A stretch of 62,821 nucleotides of DNA, filler included, from Candidatus Woesearchaeota archaeon (GCA_046538795.1; 8 parts of 8 records of this genome joined end to end with filler, not necessarily neighbours in it), one strand, 5' to 3'. Positions 30,001-36,000 are shown, counted from the whole stretch's first letter. Numbers: made by a program.

Positions 30001-33000
30001 CCTGTATGCGCTCTTGTAAGTCTTGCGATTTCAGGAAATCCTTCTTTTTCTAAAATATCTGCTCCAACTTCGCCGTGATGACCGCCTTTTTCAAGACATT
30101 TTGCTTTTGCTATGTCGTGGAGAAATCCTGCTTTTTGCAAAAGATCAGGGTTTATGTCAAAACCTTTGTTGTAGAGGTGCTGCGCAATATTTTTTGCAAG
30201 ACAACCAACAAGCTTCATGTGCTCTATCATGTTGTCATAACAGCCGTACTTTTTCTGAAGTTCTGCTACCTTTTCATCTGTTGGAATATTCATCAGGAAT
30301 TAAGGTTTTGATGTTTTGTTTTAAAATATTTCGGATGATATTGGGATAATATTGAATAGATAATTTTTTATATTAATTCCATGAATCAAAGAATTGTGAA
30401 TCAAAATGGCGATCAATTTTATAAAAAATATATGGAATAATGATGTTGATGAGGTAGCTCATGCAAAGTTTGTTAGATACGGCAAAGGCGAGTTTGTAAA
30501 AGAAGAGTTCAAGATAAAGGCTGGATCAAAGATACAGGTTTGGGCAGGCTTTGAATATGTCGAAGTTCTTTTCAGGATGATGGCAGAAGTTGTAACTGAA
30601 CCTGGTTCAGTAAAAGGCACTATTGTCTCAAAACAAGACATAAAATCAAAGTTTGACGAGCTTGGAATTGAGCCAAAAAAGATTACAGGAAAAAAATATA
30701 CTGTTGAAGAAACTCTTGATCCTGAACAGTTCAAAAAATTTGTTGATACATTCTCTGAATACTACATGCTTCTTAAGGCAAAATCAGGAAACAATGAGAT
30801 CAAGACAAAGACATCTGTTCCAAAACCAGGTAAGCTTGTAGAAAAGTTTGCTTCTGCAAAGTTTGACAAGTCTGCACTTGACATGATAAAAAAAGAGTTC
30901 TTGTTTGACCATGACGGAAATTTCAAAGAAGCAGTTATCAACCATACCTACAGGATAGACGATATAATCGTTGATGAATCTTTAGTTGAGAAAGATCCTG
31001 CCCGCGCAAGGCTTGAAGCAAAACGAAAAGGAACTCTTATAAGAAAGTCTGTTGTTGATGGCGAGGAAGTTACTGAAGAAAAAGACATGCTTGTCTAAAT
31101 TTCTGTCTTATTTTTATTTTTTAAATTAATGCTTGTTGATGTTTTTTCTGTTACTACTATGTGTACTTACAATATCTTTTTAAAGTATTTATTCTAATGA
31201 GCCAAATAATTGTTAAAATTATCCTCAATAAGTTAATTTTGTCCTGAAACTCATGATTCATGTGTTTCTTGCAGAGATATTTGAGTAAAAATAAGGTGAT
31301 ATCTGATGAAAGAACTGAGTCCTGTGATAGGTGTTGATAAGGATAACTGTGTAAACTGCCATGCCTGCATTGATGCCTGTCCTGTCAAGCACTGTAATGA
31401 TGGTAGCGGCGATACTGTTAAGCTTAATCATAATACCTGCATTGGATGCGGAGAATGCTTAAAGGCCTGTACGCATGACGCGCGGTATGTGATTGATGAC
31501 ATAGAGCATTTCCTTGATGATGTTAAGCATGGAGAAAGAATAGTTGCAATAGCTGCGCCTTCTGTGGCATCCAGCTTTCCAAATAAATATCTTAATCTTA
31601 ACGGCTGGCTTAAGTCAATTGGTGTAGATGCTGTTTTTGATGTTAGTTTTGGAGCTGAACTTACTGTAAAATCATATCTTGAACATGTCAAGGCAAATAA
31701 TCCGAAAATGGTCATAGCTCAGCCATGCCCTGCATTGGTTACTTATATTGAGATGTACAGGCCTGAGCTTTTGCCTTATCTTGCGCCTGCTGACAGTCCT
31801 ATGCTTCATACAATAAAGATGATAAAGAGATTTTATCCTGATTATTCCCGCCACAAGGTTCTTGTCTTGTCTCCGTGTGTCGCAAAAAAAAGGGAATTTG
31901 ATGAGACTGGATATGGTGATTATAATGTTACTTATCATAATCTTAACAAGTACTTTGATCATAACAATATACGTCTTGATCAGTTTCCAAAGGTTGATTA
32001 TGACAATCCTGATGCTGAGCGAGCTGTTCTCTTTTCAAGTCCGGGAGGTCTTTTAAGGACTGCCGAGAGAGAATATCCAGGGATATCTGAAGTCTCGAGA
32101 AAGATTGAAGGGCCTGAACTCATATACAAGTATTTTAATGGTCTTCCTTCTGCTGTAAATTCCGGACGAAATCCTCTTCTTGTAGATTGCCTTAACTGCG
32201 AGATGGGATGCAACGGCGGTACTGGAACAGATTGCAAGGAGATGCATGTGGACGAGATTGAGTCTTTAGTAGAAGAAAGGAGCAAGCAGGTAAGGGGCCG
32301 TTATGGTAAAAAAGGTTTGATTAACCCAAAGAACAGTGTGAAAGAGCTTAGGAAATATATAGATGACCACTGGGAGAAGGGCCTTTATGACAGGAATTAT
32401 GTTGACTTGTCATCCAATGTAAGTATAAAGATGCCGACGCAGTCAGATATACAGAAGATATATAGCGAGGACCTACAAAAAGAATCTGAAAAAGAGGTAT
32501 ATAACTGCGGGGCATGCGGTTATGGATCCTGCGAGGGAATGGCTGTTGCAATATATAATGGCCTTAACAAGGCAGAGAATTGTCTTCATTATAATGAGAA
32601 AGTCATCTCAAAAGACAGGGAGAAGATCGCAAGGGCTAATGAAAAGAATTCAAAGCTTGCGTCTGAGATCGGCGAGACTATAGGAAAGGCAAATGAGATG
32701 CTTGTAAAGAAAGCGACAGATCTTCTTAACATGGCACAGACACAGGAAGCAGAATTTGAGAATTTGGTAAAGGAAACATCAGAGACATCAAAGGTCGCTG
32801 AGAAATTCGTGCCGATTGTTGAAACAATAAATGATATCACAGACCAGACAAGCCTTCTTGCGCTTAACGCGGCAATAGAGGCTGCAAGAGCAGGAGATGT
32901 GGGAAGAGGTTTTGCTGTGGTTGCTGACGAAGTCAAGAAGCTTTCTTCAAGATCCATGGCAGAAACCGAGAAGATAAAGCCGTATTCTGAAGAGATTCAG

Positions 33001-36000
33001 GCAGCATTCAACATGATCAATGAAAAGGTTTCGGGAACTTCGAAAAAATATGCAGACACTGCACATCTGATTGAGGAAGTGACTGCAATTACAGAAGAGA
33101 TCTCTGCGCAGACAAAAAAACTATGCACAGAGGCAGATTGCAACAGACCAGACACTTCAGAAGAGAATTGAAATTTTTCTTTTTTTTCTTTCATAACCTT
33201 TTTAAATTAATCTTTATTCATTTATTCTAAAATGTCCTCTGAAAATAATAATGGCAGCAAAAATAAGATACTTGTGACAAGCGCGCTTCCTTATGTCAAC
33301 AATGTTCCTCATCTGGGAAATATCATAGGTTGTGTTCTCTCAGCAGATGTCTATGCAAGGTTTGCAAGAAATATGGGTTATGATACTTTGTTTGTATGCG
33401 GGACCGATGAGCATGGAACTACTTCTGAATCAAAGGCAATGGAAGAAGGTGTAGCTCCTAAAGAGATCTGTGACAAGTATTACAAGATTCACAAGAAGAT
33501 ATATGAGTGGTTTAAGTGCAGTTTTGATGCTTTTGGGCGTACTTCTGACAAGGCTAATCATGAGACTGCCCAGGACATATTCCTCAAACTTAAAGATAAT
33601 GGTTATATTCTGGAAGATGAGATTGAACAGATGTATTCTGAAAAAAGCAAGATGTTTCTCGCTGATCGGTTTGTCGAAGGAAAATGTCCTAAATGCGGAT
33701 TTGAAAAGGCAAGAGGAGATCAGTGCGACAACTGCGGAACCATGCTTAATCCAACTGATCTTATAGATCCTGTTTCAAAGGTTGACGGTACAAAGCCTGT
33801 AATAAAGAAAGTGAAGCACCTTTTCATGGATCTTCCAAAAATTGCTCCTGAACTTAAGAACTGGATTGATTCCAGAAATAAGAATTGGTCTGAAAATGCA
33901 AGAAAGATGACATCTGCATGGTTAAGAGATGGACTTAAGCCAAGATGTATAACAAGGGATCTTAAATGGGGAGTCAAGGTTCCTATGGAAGGTTATACTG
34001 ACAAGGTTTTCTATTCCTGGTTTGATGCGCCGATAGGATATATTGGTATTGCAAAAGCAGCATTTGATGATTGGAATGAGTGGTGGAAAGATGATGAAAA
34101 TGTGCGCCTGATACAGTTCATGGGAAAAGACAACATCCCTTTCCATACGATAATGTTCCCTTCTTTTCTTATAGGGGCAAAAGATGATTATACCTTGCTT
34201 TACAATATTTCATCTACTGAGTATCTTAACTATGAGACAGGAAAGTTCTCAAAGAGCAATAATACTGGTGTTTTTGGGGATGATGCCATGAACACAGGAA
34301 TACCTGTTGATGTGTGGAGGTATTACTTGCTTGCAAATCGTCCTGAGACTTCAGATACTGAATTTTCATGGAAGGATTTTCAGGAGAGGAACAATTCAGA
34401 GCTTCTTGCTAACTTAGGAAATTTTGTAAACAGGACTCTTACTTTTTCATCAAAGAATTTTGATCTGGGCGTTCCTGAATCAGGGCTGGATGCCAAGGGA
34501 AGGGAATTTATGGACAAGATAGAAAAAGAGATCAGGATATATGAGAACATGATGGAAAAGATACAGCTCAGGGATGGCATAAAACAAGTTATGCACATAT
34601 CCAGATTGGGTAATCAGTTTTTTCAGGAGCAGGAACCTTGGAAGATGGTAAAGGAAAATAAGGAAGTATGCGCAGCTTCAATTTATGCGTGCTGCGAACT
34701 TGTAAGAAAGCTTGCTATAATTGTTGAACCATATCTTCCTGAGACAAGCAAAGAAATCTTTTCACAGCTTGGGATGGATGGCCAGAATATGGATTCTATC
34801 CTTAAGATGATAGGGCCTGGACATAAGTTTGGATCAGTAAAACCTATCTTCAGGAAGCTTGAAGATTCTGAGATAAAGAGTTTCCAGGATAAATTTTCAG
34901 GAAAAAGGGAAGAGAAACAGGAAGATCACTCAGATCTTTCGCTTCCGAATCTGAAAGTTGCAGAAATACTTTCTGTAGAGGATCACCCTGATGCAGACAA
35001 ATTGTTTGTCATGCAGATCAATTTAGGGGCCGAGAAAAGACAGCTTGTCGCAGGACTCAGGGCATATTATTCTAAAGAAGAGCTTTTAGGAAAACATATT
35101 GTTGTTGTAAGCAACCTTAAGCCTGCAAAATTAAGGGGGAAGGAAAGCCAGGGAATGCTTCTTGCAGCTGATAAAAAAGATATTGTAAAAGTCCTTGAAG
35201 CCCCTCAGTCTGAACCAGGAACACAAGTGTATTTTGAAGGCGTTACTCCATCAGAAAAGCAGATAACTATCGATGATTTTTTTACGATAAAGATCAAGAT
35301 AAAAGACAAGAAAGCACAGGCTGAAGGAAAGTTCCTTAAGACTGATTCAGAATTTGTTTCTGTTGACATAGCTGATGGTGCCAAGGTCAGGTAGGGTTGT
35401 ATGTTAATTATTTAAACCTCTTTGCATTTCTTTTTTTAATGGATCCTAAAATAGTTTCGGATATTTCAGATATTGCAGCAGATATTCTTGTTGTAGGAAC
35501 AAGGAACCAGATTGATTTTCTTAAGAGATATCAAGGTCTGATGACAGGTGAATCTGATCCTGACATAAGATATGTTTCTGATTATACTGATCTTTTATTT
35601 GAAGCAACCAGGCTGGAAAAACCAAACAAAGTAGTTTACACAGGAAATATTGAGATAGACTACAGCAAGATAAGATTTGATTCTTGTTTTGAAAATTATG
35701 TCATGAAATATGTCTTTGATTTCATGGGCATCCCTGAATCTGAAAGGCACAGGATTGAATTTAAGGAACATTTCAGGTAAATTTAATTTGAAAAATTAAG
35801 AGATTCTATTGATTATTTTTTAAAACTTTAAAACAAACTTAATCAGATAGCAGAGTCTTTTTTCTGAATTTTCTTGCTGCTTTTTTCACTTGGTTCAAAT
35901 CGTAAGCTTTTTATATGAGAATCCTAATAAATTCTCTTAGGTGTTTTTTAGTTTTGTGGGGAAATATATTTTGCACAAGGGAAAACGGGTTATGAAGAGA

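Follow-up and report, generated by a model that had tools for sequence, protein, structure and literature searches.

A Woesearchaeales archaeon encodes a protein in which an [FeFe]-hydrogenase-type module is fused to the signalling domain of a methyl-accepting chemotaxis protein (MCP) and which, judged by its architecture and its relatives, is a member of the large, mostly bacterial [FeFe] group C2 family of HydDB. Its most likely function, as read from the sequence, is that of a cytoplasmic receptor of H2 (or of redox state) that signals to CheA. That it is a group C2-type cytoplasmic chemoreceptor, acquired from bacteria and operating by the mechanism proposed below, seems to us about an even call. 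The novelty is confined to its occurrence in an archaeon, the receptor type being already catalogued in bacteria; it is the first archaeal group C [FeFe] hydrogenase found, no earlier case having been located. Since 2016, the HydDB table has listed [FeFe] group C2 as "Chemotactic (putative)" with the entry "Undetermined role" (PMC5037454), which agrees with the assignment to this bacterial family in the genome-wide survey's note. The same note took group C to be described as bacterial; in their passages on classification, Greening et al. 2024 indeed call it so and, for archaea, list no groups other than A1, A3, B, E, F, and G (PMC11216029).

Domain architecture and H-cluster pocket

The window, i.e., the whole stretch of DNA analysed (62,821 nt), consists of eight contigs joined by N, and the sensor gene lies on one of them, C88 (window positions 27513-45773). 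The ORF reported by the survey was found at the same position and with the same length, and the fusion of Fer4, H-domain, 4-Cys FeS motif, and MCPsignal was recovered by Pfam; only the Fe_hyd_lg_C score differs (108.9 bits instead of 105.9). The gene and the relevant parts of its product are:

31306..33171, + strand: sensor/MCP fusion gene, an intact ORF with ATG start, 621 aa
31333..31485, + strand: N-terminal domain (Fer4, Fer4_10) with two CxxCxxCxxxC motifs (Cys15/18/21/25 and Cys45/48/51/55), predicted to bind two [4Fe-4S] clusters
31537..32220, + strand: [FeFe]-hydrogenase H-domain, residues 78-305 (PF02906; Foldseek)
31720..31731, + strand: motif 1, QPCP (139-142), aligned to TSCCP of CbA5H and CrHydA1; Pro140 replaces the proton-relay Cys (CpI C299), Cys141 is a ligand
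31870..31896, + strand: motif 2, SPCVAKKRE (189-197), aligned to MPCxxKxxE; Ser189 replaces CpI M353, and Cys191, Lys194, and Glu197 are kept
32185..32220, + strand: motif 3 (294-305), aligned to EIMACPAGCVGGGG of CrHydA1; Leu296 replaces CpI M497, Cys298 and Cys302 are ligands, Cys295 is an extra Cys
32506..32583, + strand: Cx2Cx4Cx16C motif (Cys401/404/409/426, residues 401-426; PF04060), predicted site of a further Fe-S cluster
32584..33141, + strand: MCP signalling hairpin formed by two helices, 427-528 and 530-612 (PF00015; AlphaFold2 model)
33085..33108, + strand: AITEEISA (594-601), sole match to the methylation-site consensus (regex scan)

Pfam places Fer4_10 at residues 10-55, Fer4 at 39-60, Fe_hyd_lg_C (PF02906) at 78-305, FeS (PF04060; 29.9 bits) at 399-427, and MCPsignal (PF00015; 109.3 bits) at 472-607. 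No membrane helix was found in the protein, as the survey had stated, the highest 19-residue Kyte-Doolittle mean being 0.88. The AlphaFold2 model (mean pLDDT 89.3, pTM 0.75) matches CbA5H, DdHydAB, TmHydABC, and CpI in Foldseek with a probability of 1.0, over 424-468 alignment columns in the case of full-length enzymes and 369-372 in the case of DdHydAB large-subunit chains. In this model the signalling helix begins at residue 427, and Cys426 stands immediately before it; the hairpin has about 24 paired heptads and its tip at RAGDVGRGF (Asp531). AITEEISA was picked out by its match to the methylation-site consensus and is a candidate site; this position is EE, QE, or EQ in 7 of the 10 rows of alignment A1, the window protein counted.

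The three H-cluster Cys motifs, reported by the survey as readable in the sequence, were located at residues 139-142, 189-197, and 294-305. Their four ligands (Cys141, Cys191, Cys298, and Cys302) align with the cluster-ligating Cys in CbA5H and CrHydA1, and all 16 cluster Cys, together with Lys194 and Glu197, are invariant across 73 family sequences. So are Pro140, Ser189, and Leu296, and Cys295 is present in 90% or more. The loss of the proton-transfer Cys from the first motif was thus correctly recognised, Pro140 being aligned there with both enzymes (of the proton pathway, the mapping covered the position of CpI C299). Lys194, Glu197, APSV, the Pro of SPM, and the Phe of FSSPGG, which make up the 2Fe-subcluster pocket, are kept in archaeal and bacterial copies. 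The protein scores below the curated cut-offs of the NCBIfam catalytic models (134.9 vs. 450 bits for FeFe_hydrog_B1, 102.7 vs. 405.95 for [FeFe] group A, and 82 vs. 765 for A6). It bears the sequence marks of sensory groups C and D (M2f and M2e), namely, the N-terminal clusters, the Cx2Cx4Cx16C motif described for these two groups, and replacements of C299, M353, and M497 (PMC8163306).

Proposed mechanism and maturation

We propose that the N-terminal module, comprising two [4Fe-4S] clusters and the H-domain, would bind an H-cluster in a pocket devoid of the proton-relay Cys and of both framing Met (Pro140, Ser189, and Leu296 in their places). Such an altered pocket would make the site slow with H2 and let it hold a reduced state instead of turning over. 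Electrons would pass to the extra cluster bound by Cx2Cx4Cx16C, whose last ligand, Cys426, would cap the first helix of the short MCP hairpin, so that the redox state of this cluster may be relayed mechanically to the hairpin tip; the tip would modulate CheA/CheW of the host and, through CheY, the rotation of the archaellum. The data show the architecture, the conservation of the ligands, the membership in the family, the location in an archaeon, and that Che and archaellum genes are present; that an H-cluster is loaded, that H2 is what is sensed, that Cys426 mediates the coupling, that CheA receives the output, and which sign the response has are inferred. If this is true, a fermenting cell whose HydABC depends on NADH and ferredoxin would avoid inhibitory H2 and move toward H2 consumers. 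The survey's boldest reading, an H2 (or redox) sensor feeding the Che system so that the cell moves along H2 gradients, is partly supported; it is weakened by the failure to find HydG in either archaeal carrier or CheF in the host, and by the short hairpin.

Neither HydF nor HydG was found in the genome of the host (97.6% complete) and nothing exceeded the cut-off for HydE, consistent with the survey, which had recognised none of the three maturases. HydG was not found either in G439, a Woesearchaeales genome that encodes a 63%-identical copy of the sensor, and it is present in 4/4 bacterial carriers tested; therefore, the archaeal protein may lack the 2Fe subcluster. A sensor of this kind would respond to Fe-S redox state, to the ferredoxin pool, or to O2, and would serve energy taxis or oxygen avoidance with its four [4Fe-4S]-type sites only, a possibility to which we give tentative weight. 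It gains from G439, where no other Fe_hyd_lg_C gene was found and hence no other [FeFe] hydrogenase would justify a kept maturation route; for the same reason, the occurrence of the sensor is independent of [FeFe] H2 production by the cell itself, which counts against the mechanism proposed above. The sample from which the host genome originates is a microbial mat, and microbial mats have steep gradients of O2 and redox state. Against this stands the pocket of the 2Fe subcluster, the residues of which are as well kept in archaeal as in bacterial copies. Moreover, the host retains a trimeric HydABC hydrogenase with the same maturation need as the sensor. According to the parts of Greening et al. 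that deal with maturation, of 130 archaeal genomes that encode [FeFe] hydrogenases, no more than 5 have all three maturases, yet such enzymes are active when produced, and another maturation route has been proposed (PMC11216029).

Comparison with known systems

The closest known type is HydDB group C2 itself (Sondergaard, Pedersen & Greening 2016, PMC5037454), which, as tabulated there, shares with the sensor the joining of a sensory H-domain to an MCP signalling domain and the proposed role. The architecture is common to 119 listed relatives of 45-62% identity. The sensor differs in that its host is archaeal, HydEFG were not found in the genome, and its output would act on an archaellum and not on a flagellum.

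The likeness to TamHydS of Thermoanaerobacter mathranii (M2e, group D; Land et al. 2020, PMC8163306), compared by description, concerns the two N-terminal [4Fe-4S] motifs, the H-domain, and Cx2Cx4Cx16C, as well as the loss of C299 and the changes of M497 to Leu and of M353 to Ser, which correspond to Leu296 and Ser189 of the sensor. TamHydS incorporates [2Fe]adt, and its behaviour is that of a slow enzyme that stabilises Hred (PMC8163306). Unlike the sensor, in which the 4-Cys motif runs directly into the MCP hairpin, TamHydS is devoid of a fused output.

TmHydS of Thermotoga maritima (M2f, group C) was reportedly studied by Chongdar et al. in 2018. By description, it resembles the sensor in its module order, putative sensory role, and lost proton pathway, and differs in its output, a PAS domain. 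It also has Ser and Gly at the positions of M497 and M353 (PMC8163306). In the case of the ultraminimal [FeFe] hydrogenases of group E, the similarity is limited to archaeal hosts, often DPANN and mostly without maturases; as presented in the classification passages of Greening et al. 2024, this group is minimal, catalytic, and monophyletic in archaea and a sister clade of bacterial group C (PMC11216029), in contrast to the sensor, which is multidomain and clusters with bacterial C2.

Soluble redox/O2 chemoreceptors such as Aer2 and Thermotoga Tm14 (PDB matches 3g67, 3g6b, and 31cj) are likewise cytoplasmic MCPs whose hairpin is short and whose input carries a cofactor, but this input is heme or PAS, or is absent, and not a hydrogenase domain. 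In regulatory [NiFe] hydrogenases (HoxBC/HupUV with the HoxJ kinase), a slow hydrogenase is the H2 sensor controlling a signalling protein. The idea of a slow hydrogenase as a proposed H2 sensor is common to them and to our protein (they are mentioned in PMC8163306); their metal site and fold, however, are unrelated, and their output is transcription via a kinase, not taxis.

Bacterial relatives and probable gene transfer

A search for relatives indicates a bacterial origin of the gene. PF02906 and PF00015 are both carried by 120/120 rows of listed relatives (45-62% identity to the sensor), among which the best match, at 62%, is named Nanobdellota archaeon; the survey's description of relatives of the same architecture is borne out among them. 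Outside DPANN, the named close relatives are all bacterial among the matches listed. At E<=1e-30, the sensor is matched by 820 cluster representatives. In the best 58 of them, a common module (residues 1-450 of the sensor) carries MCP (34), histidine kinase (12), or SpoIIE (5) outputs, which correspond to HydDB C2, C1, and C3, respectively; against proteins with MCP, PAS-kinase, and PAS-SpoIIE outputs, the module shows 45-58% identity.

The best 80 species-representative loci are bacterial without exception (80/80), and the sensor gene was detected in 0/400 other genomes in a sample of the order, in 1/400 in a sample of the phylum, and in 0/6 genomes of the host's own family. Sequence identity to hydrogenases of its own order is 28-35%, and the H-domain scores 110 bits vs. 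about 280-357 bits for almost every full-length HydA in the order, the sole full-length exception being a 356-aa protein of genome G106 (103 bits). Within the order sample (401 genomes, the host included), MCPsignal is over the cut-off in 30 genomes and Fe_hyd_lg_C occurs in 110 (six flagged unpublished ones counted; 104/395 without them). The GC content of the gene corresponds to the 97th percentile of the genome. Because of its rarity in the order and phylum samples and its position in the tree, the gene was most likely acquired from bacteria by gene transfer; the survey had likewise concluded that it is a horizontal acquisition, new for archaea only.

Presumed chemotaxis and archaellum partners

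The host Che set is full, with CheA, CheB, CheY, CheC/X, CheW, CheR, and CheD encoded on contigs C86 and C25. Archaellum genes (ArlH/I/J, FlaC (FlaC_arch), and 13 archaellin-type matches) are present on C3, C2, and C35, and both groups were found on the contigs named by the survey. Che genes occur in both archaeal carriers of the sensor, whereas MCPsignal exceeds the cut-off in just 30 of the 401 genomes of the order, which speaks for the link to the Che system. One Che cluster is in the window:

10120..27170, - strand: Che cluster on C86, presumed downstream partners of the sensor (Pfam)

It comprises CheY, CheW, two MCPs, (FtsZ, FKBP), a HATPase protein, CheW-REC, CheW, an MCP, CheR, and CheD. 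The known archaeal link between CheY and the archaellum is CheF, a switch adaptor; its profile (PF04283) gave no match in the host genome and matched in three control archaea.

According to the alignment, the hairpin tip of the sensor is nearly identical to the tips of the host's three other MCPs. The hairpin itself is about half as long as theirs: its C-terminal arm has 83 helical residues in the model vs. an aligned coiled coil of ~150 residues beyond the tip in the other MCPs (alignment reading), which have 194-253 residues in total after the tip. With this mismatch, the modelled sensor would be unable to share the array layer occupied by the host MCPs.

It is rather improbable that the gene is a recent acquisition not wired into the host, with little or no expression or with a hairpin unfit for the host Che proteins, and heading for loss. 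The hairpin mismatch, the failure to find CheF, the patchy spread in the order, phylum, and family samples, and a composition unlike that of the genome agree with such a fate, but the frame is intact with all ligands kept, the strain differences within the gene (n=3) are all synonymous, and a copy different by one residue is present on two further contigs. In addition, the nearly unchanged tip and the retention of the 63%-identical copies in two archaeal carriers, both with Che genes, argue for a functional chemoreceptor.

Archaeal context of the gene

The host of the sensor gene is an archaeon (Woesearchaeales, DPANN), since 61 bp separate the gene from a downstream MetRS gene of Woesearchaeota type, both junctions are bridged in two studies, and a 63%-identical copy is present in G439. 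The features flanking the gene are:

31118..31145, + strand: TATA-like element TTTTTAAATTAAT..., upstream of the sensor gene, a direct repeat of the element before MetRS
31295..31300, + strand: Shine-Dalgarno-like sequence GGTGAT, 5 nt upstream of the ATG (read in the sequence; putative role)
33199..33226, + strand: TATA-like element, second copy, immediately before the MetRS start
33232..35394, + strand: methionyl-tRNA synthetase (MetRS), archaeal anchor of the contig (Pfam)

MetRS, which the survey had placed on the same contig, has its best matches in genomes of the same family (58-63%), and, among its best 120, the 16 organism-named matches all belong to Woesearchaeota, Nanoarchaeota, or Nanoarchaeia. 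A single 15.6-kb contig of run X1 spans 29200-36200, and separate contigs of run X2, from another study, bridge 30182-32563 and 32713-35267. The G439 homologue is located in a 37-kb contig beside archaeal genes for OapB/OapC, prefoldin, and HerA, with MutS/L also there. A mis-binned bacterial gene or a chimeric assembly, which the named close relatives outside DPANN (all bacterial among the matches listed) and the GC values of the gene and C88, at the top end of the range in this genome, might suggest, is very improbable in view of MetRS, of these bridging contigs, of the G439 neighbourhood, and of a genome contamination of 1.6%.

The two TATA-like elements form a 28-nt repeat (D3) of 79% identity. 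A T-run follows the stop codon of the sensor gene and precedes the second copy, and in run X2 an exact 30-nt copy of 33182-33211 is present at the spot of 31118..31145.

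Domain architecture of the sensor

The sensor gene encodes, in an uninterrupted frame, a 621-aa protein in which an [FeFe]-hydrogenase-like half is joined to a methyl-accepting chemotaxis protein (MCP) signalling hairpin. Motifs of the hydrogenase-like half were mapped by HMMER alignments to solved hydrogenases, and residue numbers C299, M353, and M497 refer to hydrogenase CpI. The window consists of eight contigs with runs of N between them.

Features of the sensor gene and its product
27513-45773: contig C88 (18,261 bp), which carries the sensor gene
31306-33171, + strand: sensor ORF with ATG start
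residues 10-60: Fer4-type matches (Pfam)
residues 78-305: Fe_hyd_lg_C (Pfam, 108.9 bits)
residues 139-142: motif 1, QPCP against TSCCP; Pro140 in place of the proton-relay Cys (C299), Cys141 as cluster ligand
residues 189-197: motif 2, SPCVAKKRE against MPCxxKxxE; Ser189 in place of M353, with Cys, Lys, and Glu kept
residues 294-305: motif 3, against EIMACPAGCVGGGG; Leu296 in place of M497, with both Cys kept
residues 399-427: small FeS family PF04060 (Pfam)
Cys401, 404, 409, and 426: Cx2Cx4Cx16C, downstream of the H-cluster motifs
residues 472-607: MCPsignal (Pfam, 109.3 bits)

The 19-residue hydropathy mean peaks at 0.88, which indicates that the protein has no membrane helix. The position and domain layout claimed in the genome-wide survey's note are thus reproduced on all testable points (ORF, Pfam, and hydropathy). 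None of the NCBIfam models of catalytic [FeFe] hydrogenases scores over its cut-off with the sensor, the top one being B1 (134.9 bits vs. 450).

All 16 cluster cysteines, Lys194, Glu197, Pro140, Ser189, and Leu296 are invariant in a 73-member family alignment. The same set of features characterizes the putative sensory groups C and D in Land et al. 2020 (PMC8163306), namely, two N-terminal [4Fe-4S] motifs, the H-domain, and Cx2Cx4Cx16C, with C299 missing and substitutions at the framing methionines. The Leu/Ser pair of the sensor (Leu296, Ser189) is the pair reported there for TamHydS, described as a slow enzyme that takes up a synthetic 2Fe cofactor and stabilises the Hred state. The AlphaFold2 model built from the 73-row alignment has a mean pLDDT of 89.3, and Foldseek matches it with a probability of 1.0 to CbA5H, DdHydAB, TmHydABC, and CpI. 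The matches extend across 424-468 alignment columns where the enzyme is full-length and across 369-372 in the large-subunit chains of DdHydAB.

In this model, Cys426, the last cluster ligand, is followed immediately by the signalling helix (from residue 427), from which we infer that the extra cluster (Cys401/404/409/426) would be mechanically coupled to the MCP hairpin. The helix is predicted to extend to residue 528, with the turn at RAGDVGRGF and a return helix at 530-612. In the alignment, the tip of the hairpin is almost identical to those of the genome's other three MCPs. Its returning arm is only 83 helical residues long (~12 heptads), whereas the other MCPs of the host have 194-253 residues after the tip, with a coiled coil of about 150 residues past it by our reading of the alignment. 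This difference points to a soluble receptor of the short kind, with about 24 paired heptads by our count. The AITEEISA at 594 is one match to the methylation-site consensus, and EE, QE, or EQ occupies this site in seven of ten aligned clade sequences, including that of the window.

Results of our searches indicate that the sensor is, with little doubt, a member of the C2-type family, i.e., of the class named 'Chemotactic (putative)' in HydDB. In a word-indexed protein search, 4068 of 8000 scored candidates passed E<=1e-10, and PF02906 together with PF00015 was found in all 120 matches listed (45-62% identity to the sensor), the named relatives among which include Geobacteraceae, Bacteroidales, Phycisphaerae, Fusobacteriota, and the cultured Thermodesulfatator indicus. 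An exhaustive search of cluster representatives gave 820 at E<=1e-30, many of them longer proteins that match residues 1-450 only. The outputs in the best 58 of these 820 are MCPsignal (34), histidine kinase (12), and SpoIIE (5), while, of the five families considered, three proteins have PAS alone; four have nothing further. This division into MCP, kinase, and SpoIIE outputs corresponds to the C2, C1, and C3 split in HydDB and, together with the PF02906 and PF00015 relatives, supports the earlier assignment to group C2. Bacteria encode this receptor type widely, and its entry in HydDB dates from 2016. Orthologues occur in the culturable Desulfoluna limicola and Brucepastera parasyntrophica as well as in T. 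indicus.

Archaeal location and probable bacterial origin

The sensor gene is very probably archaeal in location. It ends 61 bp before a MetRS gene whose closest relatives among 30 related genomes belong to the same family (58-63% identity over the full length, 65-73% on fragments), and of the best 120 MetRS matches in a large protein collection, the 16 that bear an organism name are all Woesearchaeota, Nanoarchaeota, or Nanoarchaeia. Logan contigs from two runs of two studies contain the stretch. X1, which may be the source sample, has a single contig of 15.6 kb across 29200-36200, and X2 has separate contigs that span 30182-32563 and 32713-35267. No RNA dataset is among the runs listed for the stretch. 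The three strain differences within the gene are all synonymous, and two further contigs encode a protein that differs from the sensor at a single residue. A full-length homologue, 63% identical, is encoded by G439, a 97%-complete genome of the same order but of another family, within a 37-kb contig with OapB, OapC, prefoldin, HerA, and MutS/L.

Sensor homologue in G439
C8:19591-21426 (L109:10532-12535): flanked by HerA and a MiaB-like radical SAM gene

Mis-binning or chimerism is unlikely in view of the MetRS neighbour, the X1 and X2 contigs, the recorded near-identical protein, the synonymous differences, and the G439 copy.

We read the sensor gene as transferred from bacteria. None of 400 other sampled genomes of the order has a match covering both halves of the sensor, and the hydrogenase half alone is matched in 10 of the 400, at 28-35% identity. 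In a sample of the phylum, one of 400 genomes, G439, has the sensor. The best 80 loci among species representatives are all bacterial and spread across many phyla. Fe_hyd_lg_C itself occurs in 110 of 401 genomes of the order (six unpublished ones included; 104 of 395 without those). There, almost every full-length match scores about 280-357 bits and comes from an ORF of about 540-750 aa, vs. 110 bits for the sensor. The GC content of the gene (41.6%, GC3 37.5%) lies at the 97th percentile of the ORFs of at least 200 aa in the genome. A FastTree phylogeny of 110 rows places the sensor in a ten-protein clade (support 97) with the G439 copy and eight metagenome proteins without organism label; in an IQ-TREE phylogeny (LG+G4, 28 hand-picked rows) it groups with the G439 copy and three such proteins (95/94), among bacterial sequences and with no resolution of the deeper branches. 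One near relative of the clade (L113/L114, 94% identical to protein P0027) was found among the listed matches of a metagenome scan. A close relative of two further members of the ten-protein clade is surrounded by kinases and an MCP of bacterial appearance. The patchy distribution, the bacterial best loci, the low H-domain score, the GC content, and the trees thus support the horizontal acquisition from bacteria proposed earlier. The two archaeal loci share no context; therefore, one acquisition or two would both fit.

Comparison of 14 ORFs of C88 with the MetRS neighbourhoods of five relatives matched only MetRS, apart from one weak match, and so offers no empty site for comparison. A TATA-like 28-nt element (TTTTTAAATTAAT...) upstream of the sensor gene recurs before MetRS, with 79% identity between the copies.

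Paired spacers
31116-31143: before the sensor gene
33182-33211: before MetRS

In place of the spacer before the sensor gene, X2 has a perfect 30-nt copy of 33182-33211 and nine other letters. The repeat may be an insertion scar or a promoter duplication, although a repeat within AT-rich spacer DNA is weak evidence.

Chemotaxis, archaellum, and hydrogenase genes of the hosts

Chemotaxis and hydrogenase genes of the genome
10120-27170, - strand (contig C86): Che cluster with CheY, CheW, CheW-REC, a second CheW, CheR, CheD, and three MCPs
C46:28337-29350 and C24:8-733 (L194, L195): HydABC-type genes, one part at the end of C46 and the other at the start of C24

The Che cluster adjoins archaeal Spt5 and FtsZ, while contig C25 encodes CheC/X-type proteins, CheA, CheB, and two CheY, with the thermosome adjoining. 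Archaellum genes comprise ArlH, ArlI, ArlJ, and two archaellin-like genes on C3, a 619-aa FlaC_arch protein on C2, and seven tandem archaellins on C35, with 13 archaellin-type matches genome-wide. A search of the genome for CheF (PF04283) gave no match. G439 encodes CheW, a CheA-like frame, and three MCPs. MCPs over the cut-off occur in only 30 of 401 genomes of the order, which makes the Che genes in both sensor carriers notable, but two cases prove little.

The other hydrogenase of the genome is of the trimeric HydABC type (NuoE-like, NuoF-like, and HydA with a small-subunit domain). In this 97.6%-complete genome HydG has no match, and HydF and HydE have only weak ones, far below the cut-off, which agrees with the lack of recognised maturases noted before. 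HydG was not found in G439 (97% complete) either, where the fused sensor gene is the only Fe_hyd_lg_C match. All four bacterial carriers examined have HydG over the cut-off. The question of how, or whether, archaea build the H-cluster is sharpened by this difference between archaeal and bacterial carriers.

Proposed function

We see roughly equal chances for and against the full reading, in which an H2-responsive cluster relay would control CheA and hence the archaellum. The main alternative, which we consider plausible but rather unlikely, is that the protein, having no maturases to rely on, works as an Fe-S redox or O2 sensor. The maturases were indeed not found in the genome; however, the H-cluster pocket is fully conserved, and according to Greening et al. 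(PMC11216029), of 130 archaeal genomes that encode [FeFe] hydrogenases just 5 have the full set of three maturases, and another maturation route was proposed. It is improbable that the gene is a recent acquisition that is silent or not wired in; its frame is intact. An artefact is hardly credible given the independent contigs and the G439 copy.

Beyond H2 responsiveness as such, it is a tentative and somewhat doubtful proposal that a DPANN archaeon steers by H2 by means of a bacterial-derived sensory hydrogenase whose H-cluster is obtained without HydE, HydF, and HydG. Since the sensor is the only [FeFe]-hydrogenase-like gene of G439, any maturase-independent route there would serve the sensor alone, and if the proposal is true, G439 would open a clean genetic way into the alternative maturation pathway that Greening et al. 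(PMC11216029) postulate for archaea. H2 taxis by means of an archaellum would then also be a first, and it may lead the cell toward H2-consuming partners. Were H2 the signal, a small fermenter would have its motility tied to the very gas that connects it with its partners.

The description of archaeal [FeFe] hydrogenases dates only from 2024. The survey concerned (PMC11216029) names archaeal groups A1, A3, B, E, F, and G, includes no sensory group C enzyme, and calls group C bacterial. Passages of PMC11216029, PMC11606122, and PMC7495880 mention no archaeal group C or MCP-linked [FeFe] hydrogenase, and those of PMC3543383 describe MCP classes but not a hydrogenase-MCP fusion. We found no report of such an archaeal protein in the literature consulted, although the supplementary tables of the Cell paper could list one. 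What is new is the archaeal member; the receptor class itself is already known, and its role is putative in every organism. The sensor and its G439 homologue extend the sensory [FeFe] class to archaea and indicate that those DPANN archaea which carry chemotaxis genes are able to acquire ready-made receptors from bacteria. They are chiefly of use for testing how the H-cluster matures and how behaviour is linked to H2 in DPANN archaea.

Other features of the genomes

The three MCPs of C86 have dCache, dCache and CZB, and HBM/PAS domains, respectively, and their signalling domains are nearly identical around the tip. The CheW-REC protein is CheV-like, and a stand-alone 287-aa HATPase_c protein adjoins. 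An ORF of 298 aa without annotation lies between an archaellin-like gene and ArlH (L196:1442-2338). The 100%-complete genome G106 of the order encodes a 356-aa hydrogenase-like ORF (C22:55406-56296, L002) with only 103 bits to Fe_hyd_lg_C, which is unlike the usual HydA of about 560-600 aa and may represent a minimal archaeal type. A trio of small GTPase and the origin-associated proteins OapB and OapC is common to C35 of the genome under study (L193:9820-11440) and C8 of G439 (L109:935-2484), where some 8 kb separate it from the sensor gene downstream. At 35941-45772 of the window, large ORFs on the same strand (758, 1112, 345, 280, and 649 aa) match no Pfam family and are followed by an fn3-containing fragment at the end of C88; these ORFs may encode surface proteins. 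A tRNA scan of C88 found none.
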